A stretch of 63,101 nt of DNA, taken from positions 1 through 63,101 of the forward strand of contig CADBTQ010000061.1 in the NCBI GenBank assembly GCA_902797685.1. Reading direction: 5' to 3'. Numbering within the stretch: position 1 is the first letter of the stretch; each line of letters starts with the position of its first letter. A program made the translations under genes and the position numbers. Shown here piece after piece: positions 1 to 62,520 of the stretch. The DNA comes from an uncultured Eubacteriales bacterium (GTDB lineage: Bacteria > Bacillota > Clostridia > Christensenellales > CAG-1252). Under the pieces are notes generated by a model. That model was not told where the DNA came from. It did not search any database and saw nothing but the letters and a program-made list of their open reading frames with translations.

Positions 1-357
1 CTCCTTCGTGATTTATATATATATAAATTAATACTGCATCCCCAAAAAAACAATATAATATACATATTGTGTATAAAAATGTATTCTGCGCTTAACTTTC
101 TTAATGCGCTCTTAATCTCGTTTTCACCGATTTGTCACACGGCACCAGTCCCGCAAACGATGCGTAGGCAAATACTCGTGACTCGTAGCGTCTACACAGC
201 ACTCTACAAGCCATTTCCTCGTGCAATATCGGGTTTGTTGGACCATTTTGCAAAATCTTGCTTCTTGTTCTCGACATCCACCATTCCCTCGAAGAGGCAA
301 GGGCACATGCGTACGCAAAATCTTAATCATCATTTAAGGAACACAACGTCGATTATA

Positions 358-3320: not shown

Positions 3321-4283
3321 TTACGCTTTGCCGGCGCAACCGAGTACGTCCACCAACTTGTGGCGCACCAATTCCTTGATGTTGGCGCGGGCGGGTTTGA
3401 GGTACTCGCGGGGGTCAAACTTGTCGGGATGCTCGTCGAAGAATTGACGAATGGTGCCGGTCATGGCAAGACGGAGATCGCTGTCGATGTTGATCTTGCA
3501 CACCGAAAGGCGAGCGGCTTGACGGAGTTGTTCCTCGGGCACACCGATGGCGTTGGGCATTTTGCCGCCGTGCGCGTTGATCATCTTGACGTACTCTTGG
3601 GGCACCGAGCTGGAGCCGTGCAACACGATGGGGAAGCCGGGCAAACGCTTGCTCACTTCCTCGAGGATGTCAAAGCGGAGCGCGGGGGGCACCAAGATGC
3701 CTTGCTCGTTGAGGGTGCATTGTTCGGGTTTGAACTTGTAAGCGCCGTGGGACGTGCCGATGGCGATCGCCAAGCTGTCCACGCCCGTCTTGGACACAAA
3801 CTCTTCCACTTCTTCGGGACGGGTGTACGAGCCGACCGCGTGGCTGACTTCGTCTTCGATGCCCGCCAAGGTGCCGAGTTCGCCTTCCACCACCACGCCG
3901 TGATCGTGCGCGTATTGGACGACTTTGCGGGTGACTTCGATGTTGTCGGCAAAGCTAAGCGCCGAGCCGTCGATCATGACCGAGGTGAAGCCGCCGTCGA
4001 TGCAGCTCTTGCAGGTCTCGAAGTCGGGACCGTGGTCGAGGTGCAGCACGATGGGGATCTCGGGGCACTCGTGCACCGCCGCTTCCACCAATTTGACGAG
4101 ATAGGTGTGGTTGGCGTAGGCGCGGGCGCCTTTGCTGACTTGCAGGATCACAGGGGCTTTTTCCTCGCGGCAAGCTTCGGTGATACCTTGCACGATTTCC
4201 ATGTTGTTGACGTTGAAAGCGCCGATGGCGTAACCGCCGTTGTAGGCTTTTTCAAACATTTCTTTGGACGTTACTAAGGCCAT
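3321..4283 (-). CDS. fba: class II fructose-1,6-bisphosphate aldolase
   Basis: MALVTSKEMFEKAYNGGYAIGAFNVNNME.. is typical class II FBA. GGAGG RBS favours the ATG at 4283 over the track start at 4298. Confidence 0.92.
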   Translation of the reverse strand: MALVTSKEMFEKAYNGGYAIGAFNVNNMEIVQGITEACREEKAPVILQVSKGARAYANHTYLVKLVEAAVHECPEIPIVLHLDHGPDFETCKSCIDGGFTSVMIDGSALSFADNIEVTRKVVQYAHDHGVVVEGELGTLAGIEDEVSHAVGSYTRPEEVEEFVSKTGVDSLAIAIGTSHGAYKFKPEQCTLNEQGILVPPALRFDILEEVSKRLPGFPIVLHGSSSVPQEYVKMINAHGGKMPNAIGVPEEQLRQAARLSVCKINIDSDLRLAMTGTIRQFFDEHPDKFDPREYLKPARANIKELVRHKLVDVLGCAGKA

Positions 4284-4384
4284 AAATGGTACCTCCATAA
4301 AGATTTTCGATATTTGGGGCTTTCGCCTACCTTAGTGTAGCACACCCCCGCCAAAAGCGCAAGCGGTTGAGACAAAAAGGAGAA

Positions 4385-4800
4385 GGGGCAAGTGGATCTC
4401 AAGGACAGCACTGCCTTGGGTAGCGGCACAAGGCGCATGAATTGTCGCATGGCGACATGAATTGACCTCACGGTCATGAATTGGGACTCCGCCCCATGAA
4501 TTCTCGCTTCGCTCCATTGCGGTGGGATAGATTGTTGTTTCACCATCGTTACGCCGTCGCTTCGCTTCGGGTAATAGACCATTCCGAGCCGATGCCACAA
4601 GTGGCAACGTGTCGAGGAATCTCAAGGGCTATGCTTACTTGGTGAGTGGTACCATGAGTGAGTGCTTTCCTTGAGACCCTTCGACTACGCTCAGGGTGAC
4701 AGGCGTAGAACGTCTTTCATCATCATAAGCAGAGCGCAAAGCGTACTGCGCTCAGAATGGTCTATTGCCCGGAGCATTGCAACGGTGCAACGGCTTCCCC
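4385..4800. repeat. intergenic mosaic of short interspersed repeat modules (region R1)
   Basis: Shares modules with 5986-6640, 7470-7760, 26760-27100 and 62105-62520. Example: 4619-4666 is the inverted copy of 6026-6073, with 4 mismatches in 48 nt. Confidence 0.85.
4436..4503 (+). repeat. tandem array of 4 x CATGAATT(G/C) cores alternating with short hairpin spacers
   Basis: Cores at 4436, 4456, 4475 and 4495, period 19-20 nt. Spacers tcgc-atg-gcga and acc-tcac-ggt are self-complementary. Confidence 0.85.
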
Positions 4801-4812
4801 GCCGACGGGTAC

Positions 4813-4844
4813 AAAAAAATCCCGCCGAAATCGATCGACGGGAT
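4813..4844 (-). terminator. intrinsic terminator downstream of tRNA-Pro
   Basis: atcccg..cgggat stem followed by a T7 run on the minus strand. Confidence 0.7.
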
Positions 4845-4847
4845 ATT

Positions 4848-4924
4848 TGGTCTGGGTGAGAAGATTTGAACTTCCGACCTCTTGAACCCCATTCAAGCAC
4901 GCTACCAAGCTGCGCTACACCCAG
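4848..4924 (-). tRNA. tRNA-Pro (anticodon GGG)
   Basis: Hand-folded cloverleaf. Acceptor stem CTGGGTG/CACCCAG, T-arm GGAAG-TTCAAAT-CTTCT, anticodon stem CTTGA/TCAAG with loop ATGGGGT, encoded CCA end. Confidence 0.9.
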
Positions 4925-5842: not shown

Positions 5843-5985
5843 ACGCTACCTCCTTTGAGTATCTTCATTATACGGCAAAGGGGGCACATAGTCAATAGGG
5901 GCAAAATGGAAGAATTGAGTGCAAAACGCTTGCATCGCGCGCAGGAAGTGGTATAATAAGGGCGCTCGGGCGGTGGGTGCGACGA

Positions 5986-6640
5986 CAATCGTCATTCTGA
6001 GCCAACGGCGAAGAATCTCTATGGCAGCACTCACTAACGGTACCGCTCACCAAGTAAGCATAGTCCTTGAGATGTTTCGATGCGGACGATGTCCTTACTC
6101 AACATGACAATGGTGGGAAATAGAGCTTAGATTCGCTCCACTCGCTTACGCTCGGTCGGAATGACCACTACTCGTCAACCGGTCTATTGCCCGGAAGCAC
6201 AACGTGCTGATGGCGCAACGGCAGTATCGCTTGCACCCGATTGGAGCGTATCTCATCCGCTTACCAATCGTCATTCTGAGCCAACGGCGAAGAATCTCTA
6301 TGGCAGTGCTTAACTTGGGGAATCCCTTCGCCTCGTCGCAATTCGACCTAATGGTTGGTTGACGATTGGGGCGTCAACTGCACTTTGTTGTCGATTGCTC
6401 CTCTTTGCCTCACACATTGCAAGCAATGCGCGCGGCAATTATATCAAGGCGTGAGTAGTAGACCTTTGCCCTCTTCTCCTTTAGTCTATTGCCCGGAGTG
6501 CAAAGCACGATGGCGCAACAAGGGACGCTTGGTGCCACTCACCAAGTAAGCATAGTCTTTGAGATTCTTCACTTCGTTCAGAATGACTGTGACACAGAGA
6601 CGCTCATGCGGTGGGGTGATTTGACTGAAGAGCCCTTGGC
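5986..6640. repeat. intergenic mosaic of short interspersed repeat modules (region R2)
   Basis: 846-bp gap without a credible CDS. 42-nt perfect direct repeat at 5986-6027 and 6265-6306. Modules are shared with R1, R3, R4 and R5. Confidence 0.85.
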
Positions 6641-6688
6641 GTATAGGCGGAGCAAAAAAGACAAACATTACTCTATGGAGGTAACAAT

Positions 6689-7405
6689 ATGAAAGATTTA
6701 GTCAAAAAGATGGTTGCCGAGTGCGTCGGCACCTTCGTACTCGTGTTCGTCGCGTGCGGCGTGGCGGCTTTGACCGGCGGCGACTTGGTGCCTACCGCTT
6801 TGGCGTTCGGTTTGGTCATCGTGGCGATGGCTTACTCGGTCGGCAGAGTGTCGGGTTGCCACATCAACCCCGCCGTGTCCTTGGGTTGTGCCTTGGCCAA
6901 GCGGATCACTTGGAAAGAGTTCGCTTTCTACGTCCTCGCTCAATTCGTGGGCGCCGTGGTGGGCGGTATCGCCATCTTTGGCATCGCCAAAATGGCAAAC
7001 CTCAATCTCCTTGGCGACGCCAGCAACTACGCCGTCAACTTTGCGTTGGAAGGCTTGACCGCGGGCACGATCTTCGCGTCCTTGTTGACCGAGATCATCC
7101 TCACCTGCATCTTCGTGTACGTCATCCTCAACGTGACCGATCACGACTCGGGCGCGGGCAAAAAAGCCGGCTTGATCATCGGTTTGACCTTGACTTTGGT
7201 GCACTTGGTGGGCATCCGCTTGACCGGTACATCGGTCAACCCCGCTCGTAGCTTCGGTACCGCCGTGGCTGCCGCTATCTTCAACGGCGAAGTCGAGGCG
7301 CTCAAACAATTCTGGATGTTCTTGGTCGCTCCCTTGCTGGGTGCCGCCTTGGCGGTGGTGTTGTTCAACCTGCTCAACCGCAAGAAGGAAGGACAAATCG
7401 TCTGA
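6689..7405 (+). CDS. aqpZ: aquaporin / MIP-family channel
   Basis: Two NPA boxes (HINPAVSLG, VNPARSFG), six-TM layout, GGAGG RBS. Confidence 0.92.
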   Translation: MKDLVKKMVAECVGTFVLVFVACGVAALTGGDLVPTALAFGLVIVAMAYSVGRVSGCHINPAVSLGCALAKRITWKEFAFYVLAQFVGAVVGGIAIFGIAKMANLNLLGDASNYAVNFALEGLTAGTIFASLLTEIILTCIFVYVILNVTDHDSGAGKKAGLIIGLTLTLVHLVGIRLTGTSVNPARSFGTAVAAAIFNGEVEALKQFWMFLVAPLLGAALAVVLFNLLNRKKEGQIV

Positions 7406-7422
7406 GTTTAAGGACGCAAACG

Positions 7423-7455
7423 AGCCCCGAAAGCGAGTCTTTCGGGGCTTTTTTG
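7423..7455 (+). terminator. intrinsic terminator of aqpZ
   Basis: agccccgaaag..ctttcggggct stem followed by a T-run. Confidence 0.85.
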
Positions 7456-7469
7456 TTTGGAAAAACGTT

Positions 7470-7760
7470 GCGCCGATGGCGCGTGAATCGGCGCTTTGCG
7501 TCATGAATTGGGGCTTTGCCCCATGAATTGGAGCGGGCGTGCCACCGCTCCGTTGTGGTAAGGAATAGAGCTTAGATTCACTCCACTCGCTTACGCTCGG
7601 TCGGAATGGTCTATTGCCCGGAAGCACAACGTGCTGATGGCGCAACGGCGGTGGGTGGATAGAGCATAGATTCGCTCGACACGATGCCACGCGTGGCATC
7701 GGCTCGGAATGACGTTGGCGTGGGTTTCCTCGACAAGTTCGGAATGACAAGCCCTTCACC
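7470..7760. repeat. intergenic mosaic (region R3) including a 3-unit CATGAATTG array
   Basis: Cores cGTGAATCG at 7482 and CATGAATTG at 7502 and 7522. Positions 7564-7648 repeat 6119-6221. Confidence 0.85.
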
Positions 7761-7894
7761 TTGCAAAAAAGGAGCGGCGGTGCGGTTTGGGAGAGGTTTT
7801 TGTTGACTTTTTGCGCAAAACGGGGGCAAATCGTTAGGATAATAACAATCTAAAATGCTAAAATGGAAGTAGAAAAGCAAAAGGAGATACTTTT

Positions 7895-13491: not shown

Positions 13492-13572
13492 CGTTGTGCC
13501 GCCAAGGTGGCATGATGCCATTGGCTCGCGCCGATATTGATGTCTTCTTTGCGCGTGCAAAGAAAAGTATGG

Positions 13573-13596
13573 AAGCCGCAAAATTGCGGCTTTTTT
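13573..13596 (+). terminator. intrinsic terminator after the decarboxylase gene
   Basis: aagccgcaa-aat-ttgcggctt hairpin followed by T6. Confidence 0.75.
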
Positions 13597-13622
13597 GACG
13601 CTTGAGTCGTCTCCAAATCAAT

Positions 13623-26759: not shown

Positions 26760-27100
26760 AAGTTTGAAATATGCTCCGCATCACGCAAGCGATTTGCGCC
26801 CTTCCCAAGCGAAGCGAGGAGGAAAGGGTATAAAGCGCGCCGACGGCGCTTACATGGATAAGATACGCTCCAATCGGACTTTGTCCTCCCTCGGTATGAC
26901 GAGACTTCATAGACGGTCAGGCGGTATCTCATCGCCAAGGCGCACGCCTTCCTTATCAAGGGGGTCCCCGCAAAGCGCAGAGCCAAAGGCGAACGCTTTG
27001 TGGGGGCGTTTGCCGCAAGGTGCAATTCACGCCGTTAGGTCAATTCATGCCGAAGGCAATTCACGCTCCGTTAGGAGCAATTCATCCACCTGTCGGTGAG
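26760..27100. repeat. intergenic mosaic (region R4) ending in an inverted-orientation CAATTCA(C/T) array
   Basis: 26856-26877 is the inverted copy of 6237-6258 (1 mismatch). Cores at 27023, 27041, 27057 and 27078. Confidence 0.85.
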
Positions 27101-27101
27101 A

Positions 27102-27617
27102 TCACATCACCCTGCACACCCAGCACGCCAACACGCTGGAAAAGAAGGTCACCGCCAACGCCACGGGTAAGGCGTAGCGGAGTTTTTTGCCCTTCGCTCC
27201 CGCAAAATACACCGCCAACACGTAAAACACCGTTTCGCTGCCTCCCACCAACACCGAGGCGCACCGACCGACGTAACTATCCACCCCGTAACGGGCGTAA
27301 ATATCTTCCAACACAGCCAGAGACCCCGCTCCCGACAGGGGGCGAATGACGAAAAGGCGGGTCAAAGGGGACGGCACGCCCAAAGCGGTGAGGACGGGGG
27401 AAAGCATACTATCCAATCCGTCTCCCAACGGGCTTTGGTTGAGCAACACGATGCAGATAAAGATGCCCGCAAGGTAGGGGAAAATGCTTGCGATCAATTT
27501 GAGGGCTTTGGTCGCCCCCGTCACGAAGGCGTCGAACACGGGCACTTTTTTGAGCGCTCCCAACCCCAAAATCCCCAGTACGGCAAGGGGCAAAATATAA
27601 TCGGCGAGATTAGGCAC
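27102..27617 (-). CDS. spmB: spore maturation protein B (nucleoside-recognition/Gate domain)
   Basis: Membrane protein paired with spmA, 8-nt overlap. Confidence 0.75.
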   Translation of the reverse strand: MPNLADYILPLAVLGILGLGALKKVPVFDAFVTGATKALKLIASIFPYLAGIFICIVLLNQSPLGDGLDSMLSPVLTALGVPSPLTRLFVIRPLSGAGSLAVLEDIYARYGVDSYVGRCASVLVGGSETVFYVLAVYFAGAKGKKLRYALPVALAVTFFSSVLACWVCRVM

Positions 27618-29386: not shown

Positions 29387-29442
29387 TTTTTTGCAAAACC
29401 CCTCGCAATCGGTTATGCGCACGTGCATAATGAGTGTATAAC

Positions 29443-30010
29443 GTACGACAAGTTTTTACTATACAACGCTTTTGTTGAAACCCAAACTTGTTCGAAGACG
29501 AGTTTTACTTGTACAACGCTTTTGCGGAAAACCAACACTCGCTCGAACGTTTTTACTACACAACGCTTTTGCGGAGAAACAACGCTTGTTCGAAGACGAG
29601 TTTTTACCTAAGCTTTGCTTTTGCGGAGAAAAGCCAAGAGTGCGGTAATTCAAACGAACGAATCGAGGGGCAAGTGTATTAGACATACACGCGCCGAGTG
29701 GAGTTTAAGTACCAACGCTTGTTCGAAGACGCGTTTTTGCGCATAATCGGATGAGAGCGGAGTAATACCAACGAGAGAGCACAAACCCAATGTACTACTC
29801 GTACATGATTTGTGTGAACGAGCGGATTGCCCCAAGTGGAGTTTAAGTACCAGCACTCATTCGAAGACGAGTTTTACATATACAACGCTTTTGCGGAGAA
29901 AAGTCAAGAGTGCGGTAATTCAAACGAGCGAATCGAGGGGCAAGTGTATTAGACATACACGCGCCGAGTGAGTGAGCGGATTGCCGTAATATTGGCTTTT
30001 CTCCGCAAAA
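29443..30010. repeat. non-coding repeat field with ~49-nt tandem units plus an 84-nt duplication
   Basis: GTTTT(T)AC anchors at 29452, 29502, 29549, 29600 and 29871. Positions 29617-29700 and 29887-29970 differ at 2 positions. Confidence 0.85.
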
Positions 30011-30016
30011 GAACGT

Positions 30017-30052
30017 AACAAAAATCCGACCGAGCAAACCTCGGTCGGATTT
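30017..30052 (-). terminator. intrinsic terminator of rplL
   Basis: aaatccgaccgag..ctcggtcggattt stem with a T-run on the minus strand. Confidence 0.85.
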
Positions 30053-30068
30053 GTTTGTTGTACTACAA

Positions 30069-36963: not shown

Positions 36964-37281
36964 TGTTCCGTCGGAACAAAAATCAGTGATATTTATCCCT
37001 GCGGGATAAGTGATATTGCGCGTTGCGCAGTGATATTCACGCTACCGCGTGAGTGATATTTGCGCCAAAGGCGCAAGTTGAGGTTAAAAAAGATGGTTCG
37101 AGTACGATACATAGTCAAGTACCCCAACCATCTGTTTTTTTCCATAACTTGCCTAACAGGCAAATATCACTCGCACTTCATGCGAATATCACTTTGCGTT
37201 AGCAAAATATCACTTGCGCCCTCGGCGCAAATATCACCCAAACAAAAAGGCTTCGCACTCGTTTGCGAAGCCTTTTGTTTG
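36964..37281. repeat. mirror-symmetric array: 4 x AGTGATATT-hairpin, central terminator, 4 x hairpin-AATATCAC(T/C)
   Basis: Cores at 36985, 37009, 37029 and 37052 (+) and 37163, 37185, 37206 and 37230 (inverse). All spacers are small GC hairpins. Confidence 0.9.
37086..37141. terminator. bidirectional terminator at the centre of the array
   Basis: A6-agatggtt..aaccatct-T7. Confidence 0.75.
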
Positions 37282-61293: not shown

Positions 61294-62103
61294 ATGCAAC
61301 TGACCGAATTACTGGCAAAACCATTGATCAATCCCTCTGCCGCCGCTCACTTGGGCAGCGTGTACGCCTTTTGGACGGACAACAAAATGCGCCGAGTGCG
61401 CTATCTCGTGGCGGTGGACGAGGACACCTACGCGGACACCCTCGCCTACCCGTTTGGCAAGGTGTACTTTGGCAAAGACGCCGTATTGGCGACGGGAGAG
61501 TCCCAAACGGCAAACGGCGTGGCGGTGCCCTTTAAGGGGGAAGTCTACGACACGGACGGCAATCACCTCGGCTACTTGCAGGACGTGATCTGCACCGACA
61601 AAGGGTACGTCGAACACCTTTTGCTGACCGACGGCAGCACCAAGACCCCCGAGCAAGTGGTGGCGATAGGCGGGCTCGTGATCGTGCAAGGGACGCGCAA
61701 GGTGGGTAGATCCCGCCCCAAGCCCCAAAGAACTCCCGCTCCCGCCGAGGCGTTCAATCTCCCCGTCAAAACGACGCCCGCCGAGCAACTCTCCGAGAGG
61801 GAGCCTATCGAGCCCGACCCGATCGATTCTCCGTCGACCGATCCCGCCGAAATCGAGCGGGAGCCCCTCCAACCCGTGGCGCTTACTCGTGCGCCGTTGC
61901 CCCAAGAAGTCAACGCTCTGCCGCAAGGGCTTAACGTGCGATTGGTGGGCGACTACTCCTTTTTGTTGGGGCGCACCTTGGCGGGCGACCTCACCCATCA
62001 CGGGCGCACGCTGCTTGCGCAAGGGAGCGTTATCGACGAGACCGCCGTCGCCCTTGCCCGCGCCAACGGGCTATTGGTGACGTTGACGGCATTGTCGGTG
62101 TAA
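61294..62103 (+). CDS. hypothetical protein with PRC-barrel-like N-terminal repeats and a Pro-rich linker
   Basis: ..GEVYDTDGNHLGYLQDVICTDKGYVEHLLLTDG.. resembles PRC-barrel/YlmC. AGGAGG RBS. Confidence 0.4.
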   Translation: MQLTELLAKPLINPSAAAHLGSVYAFWTDNKMRRVRYLVAVDEDTYADTLAYPFGKVYFGKDAVLATGESQTANGVAVPFKGEVYDTDGNHLGYLQDVICTDKGYVEHLLLTDGSTKTPEQVVAIGGLVIVQGTRKVGRSRPKPQRTPAPAEAFNLPVKTTPAEQLSEREPIEPDPIDSPSTDPAEIEREPLQPVALTRAPLPQEVNALPQGLNVRLVGDYSFLLGRTLAGDLTHHGRTLLAQGSVIDETAVALARANGLLVTLTALSV

Positions 62104-62104
62104 G

Positions 62105-62520
62105 GGGGCGCCATCAGCACGTTGTGCTTCCGGGCAATAGACCGAGATGACGAGACCCATCACACGCCATTGTCACCCTGAGCGGAGCGTAGCGCAGTCG
62201 AAGGGTCTCAAGGACAGCACTTGCTTTGGGCGGTGAATCCCTACACCGCTGAAGCGGTCCCCTTCCCTTTAACACTTGCTCCGCAAGCACAAGGGACGCT
62301 TATGCGGATGAGATCTCTCGACGCGTCGTTCCGACTTGCTCGAGATGACGAAGGAAAGCGGATGAGATACGCTCCACGCGGCACAAATGCCTTGGTCGGT
62401 ATGACGAGTAGTGGTCATTCCGACCAAATGAACAAAGTGAATGCGTGGAGCGAATCTATGCTCTATTCCCCACCGCAGTTGCGCCATTGCGCCTAAAGGG
62501 CAATAGACCGATAGACATAG
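62105..62520. repeat. intergenic mosaic (region R5)
   Basis: 62108-62143 is the exact inverted copy of the first 36 nt of 6181-6221 and 7608-7648. 62171-62233 relates to 4660-4704 and 4397-4424. Confidence 0.85.

Follow-up and report, generated by a model that had tools for sequence, protein, structure and literature searches.

Constant-linker hairpin arrays in an uncultured Christensenellales genome: a linker variant of Gut-1 and its association with PF05635 genes

The window analysed here, a stretch of 63,101 nt from an uncultured Eubacteriales bacterium (order Christensenellales, CAG-1252; contig CADBTQ010000061.1 of assembly GCA_902797685.1), contains at positions 4436–4503 a short array in which a 9-nt linker, CATGAATTG, alternates with hairpin-forming spacers of differing sequence. 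What kind of element such an array represents, and what could read it, are the questions raised by this locus. The initial annotation knew of no described element class with this architecture, but exactly this architecture belongs to Gut-1 of Rfam (RF01706; PMC2864571). Rather than a new class, the CATGAATTG arrays represent a Gut-1-type element with a new linker, and they occur in the window as orphan arms. Moreover, Gut-1-type arrays are linked to genes of the PF05635 family: they adjoin these genes, and the linker class co-varies with the clade of the encoded protein.

Arrays of the window and their kinship with Gut-1

The arrays found in the window are as follows.

4436–4503, + strand: array 1, four linkers and three hairpins; the − strand reads CAATTCATG-hairpin and points to fba
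7470–7558, + strand: array 2, linkers GTGAATCG, CATGAATTG and ATGAATTG, with a terminal CGTTGTGG
27023–27098, − strand: array 3, linkers in − strand order GATGAATTG, CGTGAATTG, CATGAATTG, CGTGAATTG
36984–37064, + strand: canonical Gut-1 arm of another linker class (AGTGATATT four times, four hairpins), RF01706 score 60.4 bits, above the gathering score
37159–37239, − strand: inverted partner Gut-1 arm with linker AGTGATATT, RF01706 score 45.7 bits

Array 1 has the layout CATGAATTG-tcgcatggcga-CATGAATTG-acctcacggt-CATGAATTG-ggactccgccc-CATGAATTC. The linker is exact at 4436, 4456 and 4475; a fourth copy, also proposed as constant, is in place at 4495 but carries one mismatch (CATGAATTC). The whole window contains six exact copies of CATGAATTG against 0.54 expected, and six or more were obtained in 0 of 100 shuffles. 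A search allowing one mismatch returned three complete clusters, 4436–4503 (+), 7483–7530 (+) and 27023–27086 (−). Both recurrences noticed initially, near 7482–7551 and inverted at 27023–27098, are thus present, array 2 spanning 7470–7558.

The three spacers of array 1 fold as TGTCGC-ATG-GCGACA (4443–4457, 6 bp), TGACC-TCAC-GGTCA (4463–4476, 5 bp) and the weak TGGG-ACTCCGC-CCCA (4482–4496, 4 bp). The mini-hairpins, the third of them weaker, are therefore as first proposed, with stems longer than originally written because the terminal TG of each core base-pairs with the initial CA of the core that follows. The first hairpin of array 2, GCGCC-GAT-GGCGC, is accompanied by three others, and array 3 begins with CACC-GACA-GGTG. 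Shuffling of the spacer interiors of array 1, within the window only, gave P = 0.033, 0.031 and 0.147 (combined 0.007), and the combined P for all 11 units of arrays 1–3 was 1e-4. The minimum free energy (MFE) of the whole array 1 segment was unremarkable relative to shuffles (z = −0.15), and the signal therefore lies in hairpins placed exactly between the cores and not in bulk stability.

Array 1 was base-for-base identical in an independent ENA assembly (L243), where it lies upstream of the same fba gene. It is therefore no assembly artefact, an explanation that was also rejected because arrays were found across many genomes. Chance or a simple tandem repeat was rejected by the shuffles of core copies and of spacer folding, together with the family-wide spacer statistics given below.

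Gut-1 was described as three hairpins joined by the constant linker GUGAAAU (Weinberg 2010, PMC2864571). It was originally found in human-gut metagenomes only and considered a likely small RNA (sRNA), with no function or gene association given; from its covariation it was graded "certainly RNA" (PMC2864571). With the RF01706 gathering score of 50 bits as the cut-off for membership, the arm at 36984–37064 belongs to Gut-1, and the 36984–37239 pair is a second linker class inside the same 63 kb. Located between two convergent genes, its arms point towards each other, with a terminator-like hairpin bordered by an A-run and a T-run at their meeting point (approximately 37088–37140). The RF01706 covariance model did not match array 1 at E≤5; it matched array 2 (7461–7534) with 31 bits and E=0.0026, below the gathering score, and array 3 weakly with 17.5 bits and E=1.1. 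The CATGAATTG linker is therefore a variant outside the reach of the Rfam model. At least three short hairpins of free sequence on a repeated constant linker, the architecture that defines Gut-1, are present in the window arrays; the linker is CAUGAAUUG instead of GUGAAAU. In total, five orphan arms are present in this 63-kb window.

A search with the pattern TGAATTG-N6-16-CRTGAATTG-N6-16-CRTGAATT, one genome per species, yielded at least 120 stretches, so the arrays are not confined to this assembly. The survey statistics below refer to the matches listed, namely 140 arrays with 278 unique spacers from more than 100 metagenome-assembled genomes (MAGs) of gut and rumen Clostridia; 11 pattern matches from other phyla, all plain tandem repeats with identical spacers, were left out. 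Nearly all hosts are uncultured gut or rumen Clostridia (Oscillospiraceae, Acutalibacteraceae, Christensenellales and Ca. Scatosoma). The pattern TGAATTG-N-CRTGAATTG-N-CRTGAATT is common to the window arrays and the 140 arrays, and the family unit consists of about four copies of a constant 7–9-nt linker (consensus RTGAWWY; here CATGAATTG), each followed by a short, variable, near-perfect hairpin.

The spacers, 7–19 nt long, are self-complementary. An anchored stem of at least 4 bp is formed by 88% of the 278 spacers, the mean stem is 5.18 bp versus 2.62 bp in shuffles, and the mean spacer MFE is −4.8 versus −0.96 kcal/mol. Loops diverge between related arrays about five times faster than stems (0.31 per loop position versus 0.06 per stem position), and of the stem-pair changes, six are compensatory and six pair-breaking. 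The idea that hairpin potential is conserved while stem sequence varies is therefore upheld on the scale of the family. Likewise, three copies of an approximately 290-bp composite in one MAG differ within an arm almost only in the hairpin loops. Four linkers per arm were found in 93 of the 140 arrays, and nearly all arrays have no more than five units. Within arrays as well as between them, the unit period varies over 15–30 nt, with a median of 20 nt; therefore, there is no fixed helical phasing, contrary to the iteron-like period of about two helical turns initially suggested, and constant spacing of the linkers is attainable only by folding.

The stems are 97% Watson-Crick, and G·U is almost absent (3 of 715 pairs in the variable stems). 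On the CAATTCA strand, the loops have a strong polarity, with 40 GNA against 2 TNC and 29 GNNA against 1 TNNC; the closing pair is C-G in 126 of 157 loops, and the tips read C(GNA)G or C(GNNA)G. CG precedes TGAATTG in 24% of the units, giving a T-G closing pair. The loop polarity is identical in every linker class and tracks the orientation of the arm, not the direction of the neighbouring gene; therefore, on a single transcript the loops would be UNC in one of the arms but GNA in its partner. Linker variants between opposite arms are compensated in 3 cases and uncompensated in 102, which shows that the linker is conserved as sequence and not as a pairing partner. A four-way-junction ladder formed by pairing of left-arm and right-arm linkers, which RNAfold predicted in composites, was rejected on this account and because solo arms are common.

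Intergenic location is the rule (135 of 140 arrays). Solo arms between co-directional genes occur in both orientations (13 versus 19), and 5 lie between divergent genes versus 15 between convergent ones; adjacent arms are convergent in 40 cases and divergent in 3. Nearly identical copies were found on different contigs of one MAG, some loci contain several copies, and assemblies break at arrays, with short contigs and one N gap. A phage origin was rejected, since 2.9 million viral contigs contained only 24 stretches, several of them at contig ends. In one 13.6-kb IMG/VR contig (L160), inverted arrays stand at both ends, 16–71 (+) and 13544–13599 (−); assembly breakage at repeats is the likeliest cause, terminal inverted arrays on a linear element being the alternative.

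Association with PF05635 genes

The 762 predicted proteins of the listed loci, at least 120 in number, were clustered in search of families adjoining arrays. The sole family specifically adjoining them among the matches listed was a 117-aa PF05635 protein; its gene was detected by tblastn in 12 of 120 array-selected loci and adjoins arrays in 10. PF05635 genes were also sampled independently of arrays, as two close homologues on their contigs and 80 metagenome loci with 48–85% identity, and an array was scored where a 6-mer and its reverse complement made up at least five occurrences in 260 nt. Such arrays were found upstream of the gene in 68 of 78 distinct 260-nt regions, versus 8 of 83 downstream regions and 0 of 49 regions at −940 to −1200. 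RF01706 itself reached its gathering score immediately before the PF05635 gene in 16 of 20 loci tested, the second arm being marked by a weaker match on the reverse strand. One Gut-1 seed sequence, BAAZ01025322.1/307-1, differs by a few bases from the upstream region of such a gene (L168), and the seed contig stops before the gene.

Read on the gene strand, 51 of 64 loci have the sense arm first, then the antisense arm and then the gene; the gene is located between its arms at one locus only (L041). Among 64 left and 64 right arms, 33 and 38, respectively, have four linkers, and none has more than five. The linker classes at PF05635 loci comprise TGAAAT (26), TGAATT (16), TGATAT (10), TGAAGT (6), TGATGT (3) and others. 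PF05635 proteins sharing a linker class have an identity of 0.71, those of different classes 0.54, a difference reached in 0 of 2,000 permutations. The array–PF05635 link is robust; neither this link nor one between Gut-1 and any protein was found described in the searchable literature.

PF05635 is known as the 23S rRNA-intervening sequence (IVS) protein, S23p or "four helix bundle" protein, and one query had 7995 close homologues at an E cutoff of 1e-5. The profile matches PDB entry 2RLD, which has five chains, with E = 1.5e-44. S23p of Xanthomonas forms a homopentameric toroid of four-helix bundles, and in Coxiella two or three tandem GACAGAT heptamers directly precede the S23p gene of the IVS (PMC4990558). 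The family resembles Avd, the accessory protein of diversity-generating retroelements (DGRs) (PMC10053308), which forms a pentameric barrel with positive charge (PMC6182149). Cryo-EM of bRT-Avd with its RNA showed all five protomers touching one stem-loop and flipped-out RNA bases held in the crevices between protomers by the same residues each time (bioRxiv 10.1101/2023.10.23.563531).

The PF05635 genes stand alone, with RumA-like genes, tRNA genes, DUF7336 and DMP19 as neighbours. Cassettes of the TGAATT class often start at the stop codon of a RumA-like methyltransferase gene. The first-linker TGA is this stop codon at three loci (L119, L021 and L164), and thus the first hairpin of the array lies inside the coding sequence. 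The 3' codons of the methyltransferase (HVExVxxLxRQ) fold there as a hairpin whose stem covaries between species (L119, L021, L045, L164, L121 and L131). An obligatory link to the methyltransferase was rejected, as it is true for only part of the TGAATT class and other classes follow tRNA genes. PF05635 cassettes with Gut-1 leaders are very often located directly 3' of tRNA genes or clusters (L168, L189, L192, L201, L204, L206, L212, L219, L228 and L230).

Some PF05635 genes are preceded by plain tandem heptamers not separated by hairpins (L213, L241 and L226); at L213 these are four AGTTGAC copies overlapping TTGACA −35-like boxes. Such repeats may be a simpler version of the hairpin-linker leader. 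At L032 (364–560), a distant PF05635 gene (38% identity) is followed by at least six tandem copies of the 17-nt ATCAATTCTGCATTTGT, which contains CAATTC. In the L121–L130 case, the PF05635 gene lies between partly identical composites forming direct repeats of about 150 bp, with an N gap at this place in one assembly and a strain deletion of about 70 nt inside the downstream composite. Arrays as inverted transposon ends around a cargo were rejected: the arms of L013 enclose a housekeeping uronate isomerase-like gene, and the arrays of L115 merely fill successive intergenic regions.

About 90% of the arrays at the listed loci are orphan copies like arrays 1–3. The leader form, with two inverted arms of about four linkers each directly before a PF05635 gene, is not what arrays 1–3 display: each consists of one arm, and no inverted partner lies 250 nt or less away. 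No PF05635 gene was detected in the window by tblastn at E≤10, and the window arrays are therefore orphan copies. The window also contains no open reading frame (ORF) between arms and, according to the Rfam scan, no rRNA. The modules of array 1 are homologous to gene-linked ones: its − strand, GGAGCGAAGCGAG-AATTCATG-hairpin-CAATTCATG..., matches the gene-proximal arm of L164, L119, L121 and L030. The TCGCTTCGCTCC module adjoining array 1 was also found after the T-variant linker in the gene-proximal arm of PF05635 leaders. Genes of the window were mapped with a codon-usage gene caller, which also underlies the orientation statistics, together with Rfam and ARAGORN scans. The features around array 1 are the following.

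4413–4434, + strand: flanking hairpin GCCTTG-(10 nt)-CAAGGC, directly before the first linker of array 1, read from the sequence
4504–4515, + strand: TCGCTTCGCTCC module; its − strand, GGAGCGAAGCGA, contains the mini-hairpin GCGAAGC (4506–4512)
4819–4924, − strand: tRNA-Pro (4848–4924) with a terminator-like hairpin (4819–4844)

Array 1 is placed between the tRNA-Pro terminator and fba (3321–4283, −), antisense to both; its position downstream of tRNA-Pro recalls the PF05635 cassettes located after tRNA genes. Array 2 begins 14 nt past the terminator (7422–7450) of an aquaporin-like gene, and array 3, in sense orientation, 3 nt past the stop codon (27102–27104) of the upstream − strand gene. 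None of the array hairpins was called terminator-like on the strand that reads CATGAATTG; the sole such call inside any window array is the first hairpin of array 2 (7470–7482) on the opposite (−) strand, and the other calls nearby are the separate hairpins 7422–7450 and 4819–4844.

The intergenic regions 4504–4847, 5850–6690, 7552–7890 and 62100–62480 are mosaics of other short repeat modules, such as ATAGAGCTTAGATTCRCTCC... and GGTACCGCTCACCAAGTAAGCATAGTCCTTGAGAT, several of which also resemble constant flanks enclosing a variable hairpin. Module GGTCTATTGCCCGGAAGCACAACGTGCTGATGGCGC has inverted, 100% identical copies at 6180 and 62108, and CAATCGTCATTCTGAGCCAACGGCGAAGAATCTC has exact 42-nt duplicates at 5986 and 6265. 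Comparison of window positions 4284–4860 with the independent assembly revealed an 87-nt block of CTCGGAATGAC / GGTCTATTGCCC-type modules inserted between array 1 and the fba promoter. On the tRNA side, the modules differ as well, which means that non-array modules are gained and lost at the strain level. Positions 29436–30011, within the intergenic region 29387–30068, contain tandem repeats of 47 nt as well as repeats of 99 nt in direct and inverted orientation (TTTTGCGGAGAAAAG... units), a block unrelated in sequence to the arrays.

Possible role of the arrays and competing explanations

Array 1 may be an orphan arm of a Gut-1-type array whose complete form would serve as the leader of a cognate PF05635 pentamer gene and as the linker-reading site of that pentamer; arrays 2 and 3 may likewise be orphan arms. 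This joint reading is tentative, being in our estimate quite possible and a little short of probable. The complete form would consist of two inverted arms directly upstream of the gene for a homopentameric PF05635 toroid homologous to Avd. Its hairpins would fold out of single-stranded nucleic acid, likelier DNA (extruded or transiently single-stranded) than RNA. Since hairpin ends lie side by side at any hairpin length, consecutive linkers would be held at a fixed through-space distance, and the repeated linkers could be read by the repeated subunit interfaces of the cognate pentamer. The link between arrays and PF05635 genes suggests that the repeated linkers are the putative ligand of the pentamer, and the abutment of the array on the promoter of the gene suggests autoregulation. 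Most genomic copies, including all of those in the window, would be dispersed orphan sites, probably spread by duplication or recombination at the constant linkers, much as repetitive extragenic palindromes (REPs) relate to the gene of the REP-associated tyrosine transposase (RAYT). Physical binding, the species of nucleic acid and the regulatory or dispersal role are thus what we infer from sequence. The initial hint at a protein-binding array may be right in another form, with the arrays as a conserved upstream partner of PF05635 pentamer genes.

A wider proposal, which we regard as possible but rather doubtful, is that Gut-1-type arrays and stand-alone PF05635 pentamers form an unrecognised protein–repeat partnership, a "REP-RAYT without a transposase". 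The toroid would read single-stranded linkers of identical sequence, four or five in a row and kept at a fixed spacing by extruded DNA mini-hairpins, doing so at the promoter of its own gene as well as at orphan sites numbering hundreds per genome.

The placement of the gene-linked arrays bears on the nucleic acid involved. In most linker classes, the best sigma-70-like promoter is located after the last linker and before the ATG, its −10 element starting no more than 40 nt upstream of the ATG (mostly at −23 to −34) in 42 of 55 loci with a best-promoter score of at least 9, and in most classes the arrays are located after a terminator. C(GNA)G and C(GNNA)G, the loop tips read on the CAATTCA strand, correspond to the DNA mini-hairpins d(GCGNAGC) and d(GCGNNAGC), which melt at 76.5 °C as DNA, versus 39 °C for r(GCGAAAGC) (Hirao; review PMC13037366). 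Literal GCGAAGC occurs at 4506–4512 (−) in the window and also in many arrays. These mini-hairpins are a structural motif and no genetic element; natural cases are single hairpins in single-stranded DNA replication origins and phage N4 promoters. Promoter and terminator placement, orientation independence, scarce G·U and DNA-type polar loop tips favour DNA, whereas the intercistronic position of the TGAATT class, the 3' untranslated region (UTR)-like position of array 3 and the Avd precedent favour RNA. A period this variable speaks against straight duplex DNA as the form that is read, and pairing between arms is not the selected feature; our preference is therefore for DNA that is folded as a single strand or extruded, RNA coming a close second.

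Several points weigh against a linker-reading pentamer acting on folded DNA. The window has no PF05635 gene, and for its arrays the link rests on family membership. The co-variation of protein and linker could reflect co-inheritance of neighbours, and four linkers do not exactly match five subunits. The leader of the CATGAATTG class often starts at the RumA-like stop codon with no strong promoter before PF05635; the array there is therefore probably transcribed, which favours RNA, and RNA is what Avd, the only structural precedent, binds (bioRxiv 10.1101/2023.10.23.563531). In the variable stem part, 3 G·T versus 13 A·C were counted on the TGAATTG strand, and 10 versus 4 in a second count on the gene strand; these numbers are too small to identify the folded strand, and an attempt to read it off them was dropped. 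No transposase was found near orphan copies among the 762 clustered proteins of the matches listed.

That the arrays are a structured non-coding RNA, as in Rfam's view of Gut-1, appears unlikely to us. They would then act as an sRNA, an intercistronic leader or a 3' UTR, either alone or as a ligand or sponge of PF05635. The covariation on which Gut-1 was graded as certain RNA (PMC2864571) does not distinguish RNA hairpins from DNA ones. The left arm of the CATGAATTG class extends from the RumA-like stop codon up to the PF05635 start without a clear promoter, but arrays of most classes lie between a terminator and the gene's own promoter. Array 3 stands in sense orientation 3 nt past a stop codon, while orphan arrays among the matches listed have no orientation preference (13 versus 19). 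Avd binds an RNA stem-loop, and the T-G closing pair of 24% of the units would be legal as U·G; on the other hand, G·U is nearly missing from the variable stems (3 in 715), and loop polarity is set by arm orientation and not by the direction of transcription.

We consider it improbable that the arrays are selfish repeats resembling REPs or miniature inverted-repeat transposable elements, spread by another transposase or by recombination, with the hairpins as recognition structures of that enzyme and PF05635 as a frequent neighbour or cargo. Only PF05635 is specifically adjacent to arrays, and no transposase or Y1/RAYT-like gene was enriched beside them among the 762 proteins of the listed loci. 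In addition, the linker class tracks the PF05635 clade, target-site duplications were not seen at three copies compared, and array 1 is identical in two strains despite its differing surroundings. Such repeats would nevertheless account for the near-identical copies across contigs of one MAG, the multiple copies per locus, the breakage of assemblies at arrays, and the gain or loss of neighbouring modules between strains. The intergenic location (135 of 140), the rarity between divergent genes, and the inverted arm pairs (40 convergent versus 3 divergent), like those of REP doublets forming hairpins (REPINs) and bacterial interspersed mosaic elements (BIMEs), also agree with them.

A protein reading the 9-mers on duplex DNA at a spacing of about two turns, as in iterons or operators, with palindromic spacers being incidental, is very improbable. 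It fits the median period of 20 nt, the abutment of arrays on the −35 region of the PF05635 promoter, and the hairpin-free tandem heptamers at some PF05635 genes (AGTTGAC x4 at L213; GACAGAT x3 in the Coxiella IVS, PMC4990558). However, the period of 15–30 nt does not keep the helical phase, and duplex reading needs neither spacer hairpins beyond chance nor compensatory changes nor polar mini-hairpin loops. Passive RNA hairpin stacks for transcription termination, insulation or protection of mRNA 3' ends, as proposed for REPs, are scarcely credible: a position after a gene end or a terminator is frequent (arrays 2 and 3), and convergent gene pairs are favoured over divergent ones (15 versus 5 among the matches listed), but no U-tracts follow the hairpins, a conserved class-specific linker co-varying with a protein is left unexplained, and array 1 lies antisense, upstream of fba.

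To our knowledge, Gut-1 has been an orphan motif since 2010, and we know of no function outside DGRs for PF05635, a very large family with solved structures. With the motif as one arm of a dyad-symmetric PF05635 leader, with linker classes tracking protein clades and with numerous orphan arms per genome, two unknowns become one testable system. If the pentamer does read the linkers, the large uncharacterised PF05635 family, and the ancestor of Avd, would acquire a sequence-specific nucleic-acid ligand and a genome-wide role, and an explanation would be at hand for a major class of intergenic repeats that break assemblies of uncultured Clostridia from gut and rumen.

Comparison with known systems

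CRISPR (clustered regularly interspaced short palindromic repeats) likewise alternates a constant unit with a variable one. Its repeats of 23–50 nt are separated by foreign, non-palindromic spacers of 26–72 nt, whereas the window arrays have a non-palindromic 9-nt core and hairpin spacers of 7–19 nt, end at four to five units and are not accompanied by cas genes; they are not CRISPR arrays. Iterons keep a fixed helical phase beside a rep gene or origin, and the sites described here are dispersed chromosomal intergenic regions without such phasing. The GC-rich hairpin with a T-run that defines intrinsic terminators was not found in the window arrays on the strand that reads CATGAATTG.

REPs, with their BIME and REPIN arrangements, are reportedly associated with RAYTs, which are Y1 transposases. 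Like the arrays, they are abundant intergenic hairpin repeats, often in inverted pairs, with a short constant motif beside the hairpin, and a low-copy protein gene is flanked by cognate repeats whose class co-varies with the protein clade. However, in REPs the imperfect palindrome is conserved and uniform throughout a genome and the constant head has 4 nt (GTAG), whereas here the linker is constant and the hairpins vary; palindromes differ even within a single window array. The array partner, a 117-aa four-helix bundle, lacks HUH/Y1 nuclease motifs and has no evident transposition chemistry. No transposase-like cluster that could represent a cognate RAYT was enriched among the 762 proteins encoded at the listed array loci, the sample to which this result applies.

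Gut-1, which comes from gut metagenomes, is built like the arrays: a constant single-stranded linker connects several short hairpins whose sequence is free, and a C-G pair closes their TNC or TNNC loops. The differences are the linker (GUGAAAU or GUGAUAU in Gut-1 versus CAUGAAUUG in the window arrays, of which arrays 1 and 3 are not significant with the Rfam model) and the description of Gut-1 as a three-hairpin sRNA, which mentions neither the inverted second arm nor the PF05635 gene.

The 23S rRNA IVS of Coxiella and Leptospira encodes a protein of the same PF05635 family, has upstream heptamer repeats in strain-variable number and ORF-associated inverted repeats, and is regarded as a selfish element (PMC4990558). 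It is inserted in helix 45 or 25 of 23S rRNA with a 28-bp RNase III stem around the ORF, whereas the arrays lie outside rRNA genes, and neither a helix 25/45 insertion nor such a stem around an S23p ORF was found for the window arrays. Unlike in the IVS, both arms are usually located on one side of the ORF, hairpins stand between the repeats, and an ORF is missing from most copies.

Avd is a homologous pentamer that binds a nucleic-acid hairpin and supplies a physical model for the reading of repeated linkers. It works with a reverse transcriptase and a template repeat, while the PF05635 genes at arrays are stand-alone, and its ligand is a single 11-bp RNA stem-loop, compared with the four-unit arrays described here. 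The arrays and their partner genes may show the role of Avd-like proteins before their recruitment by DGRs.

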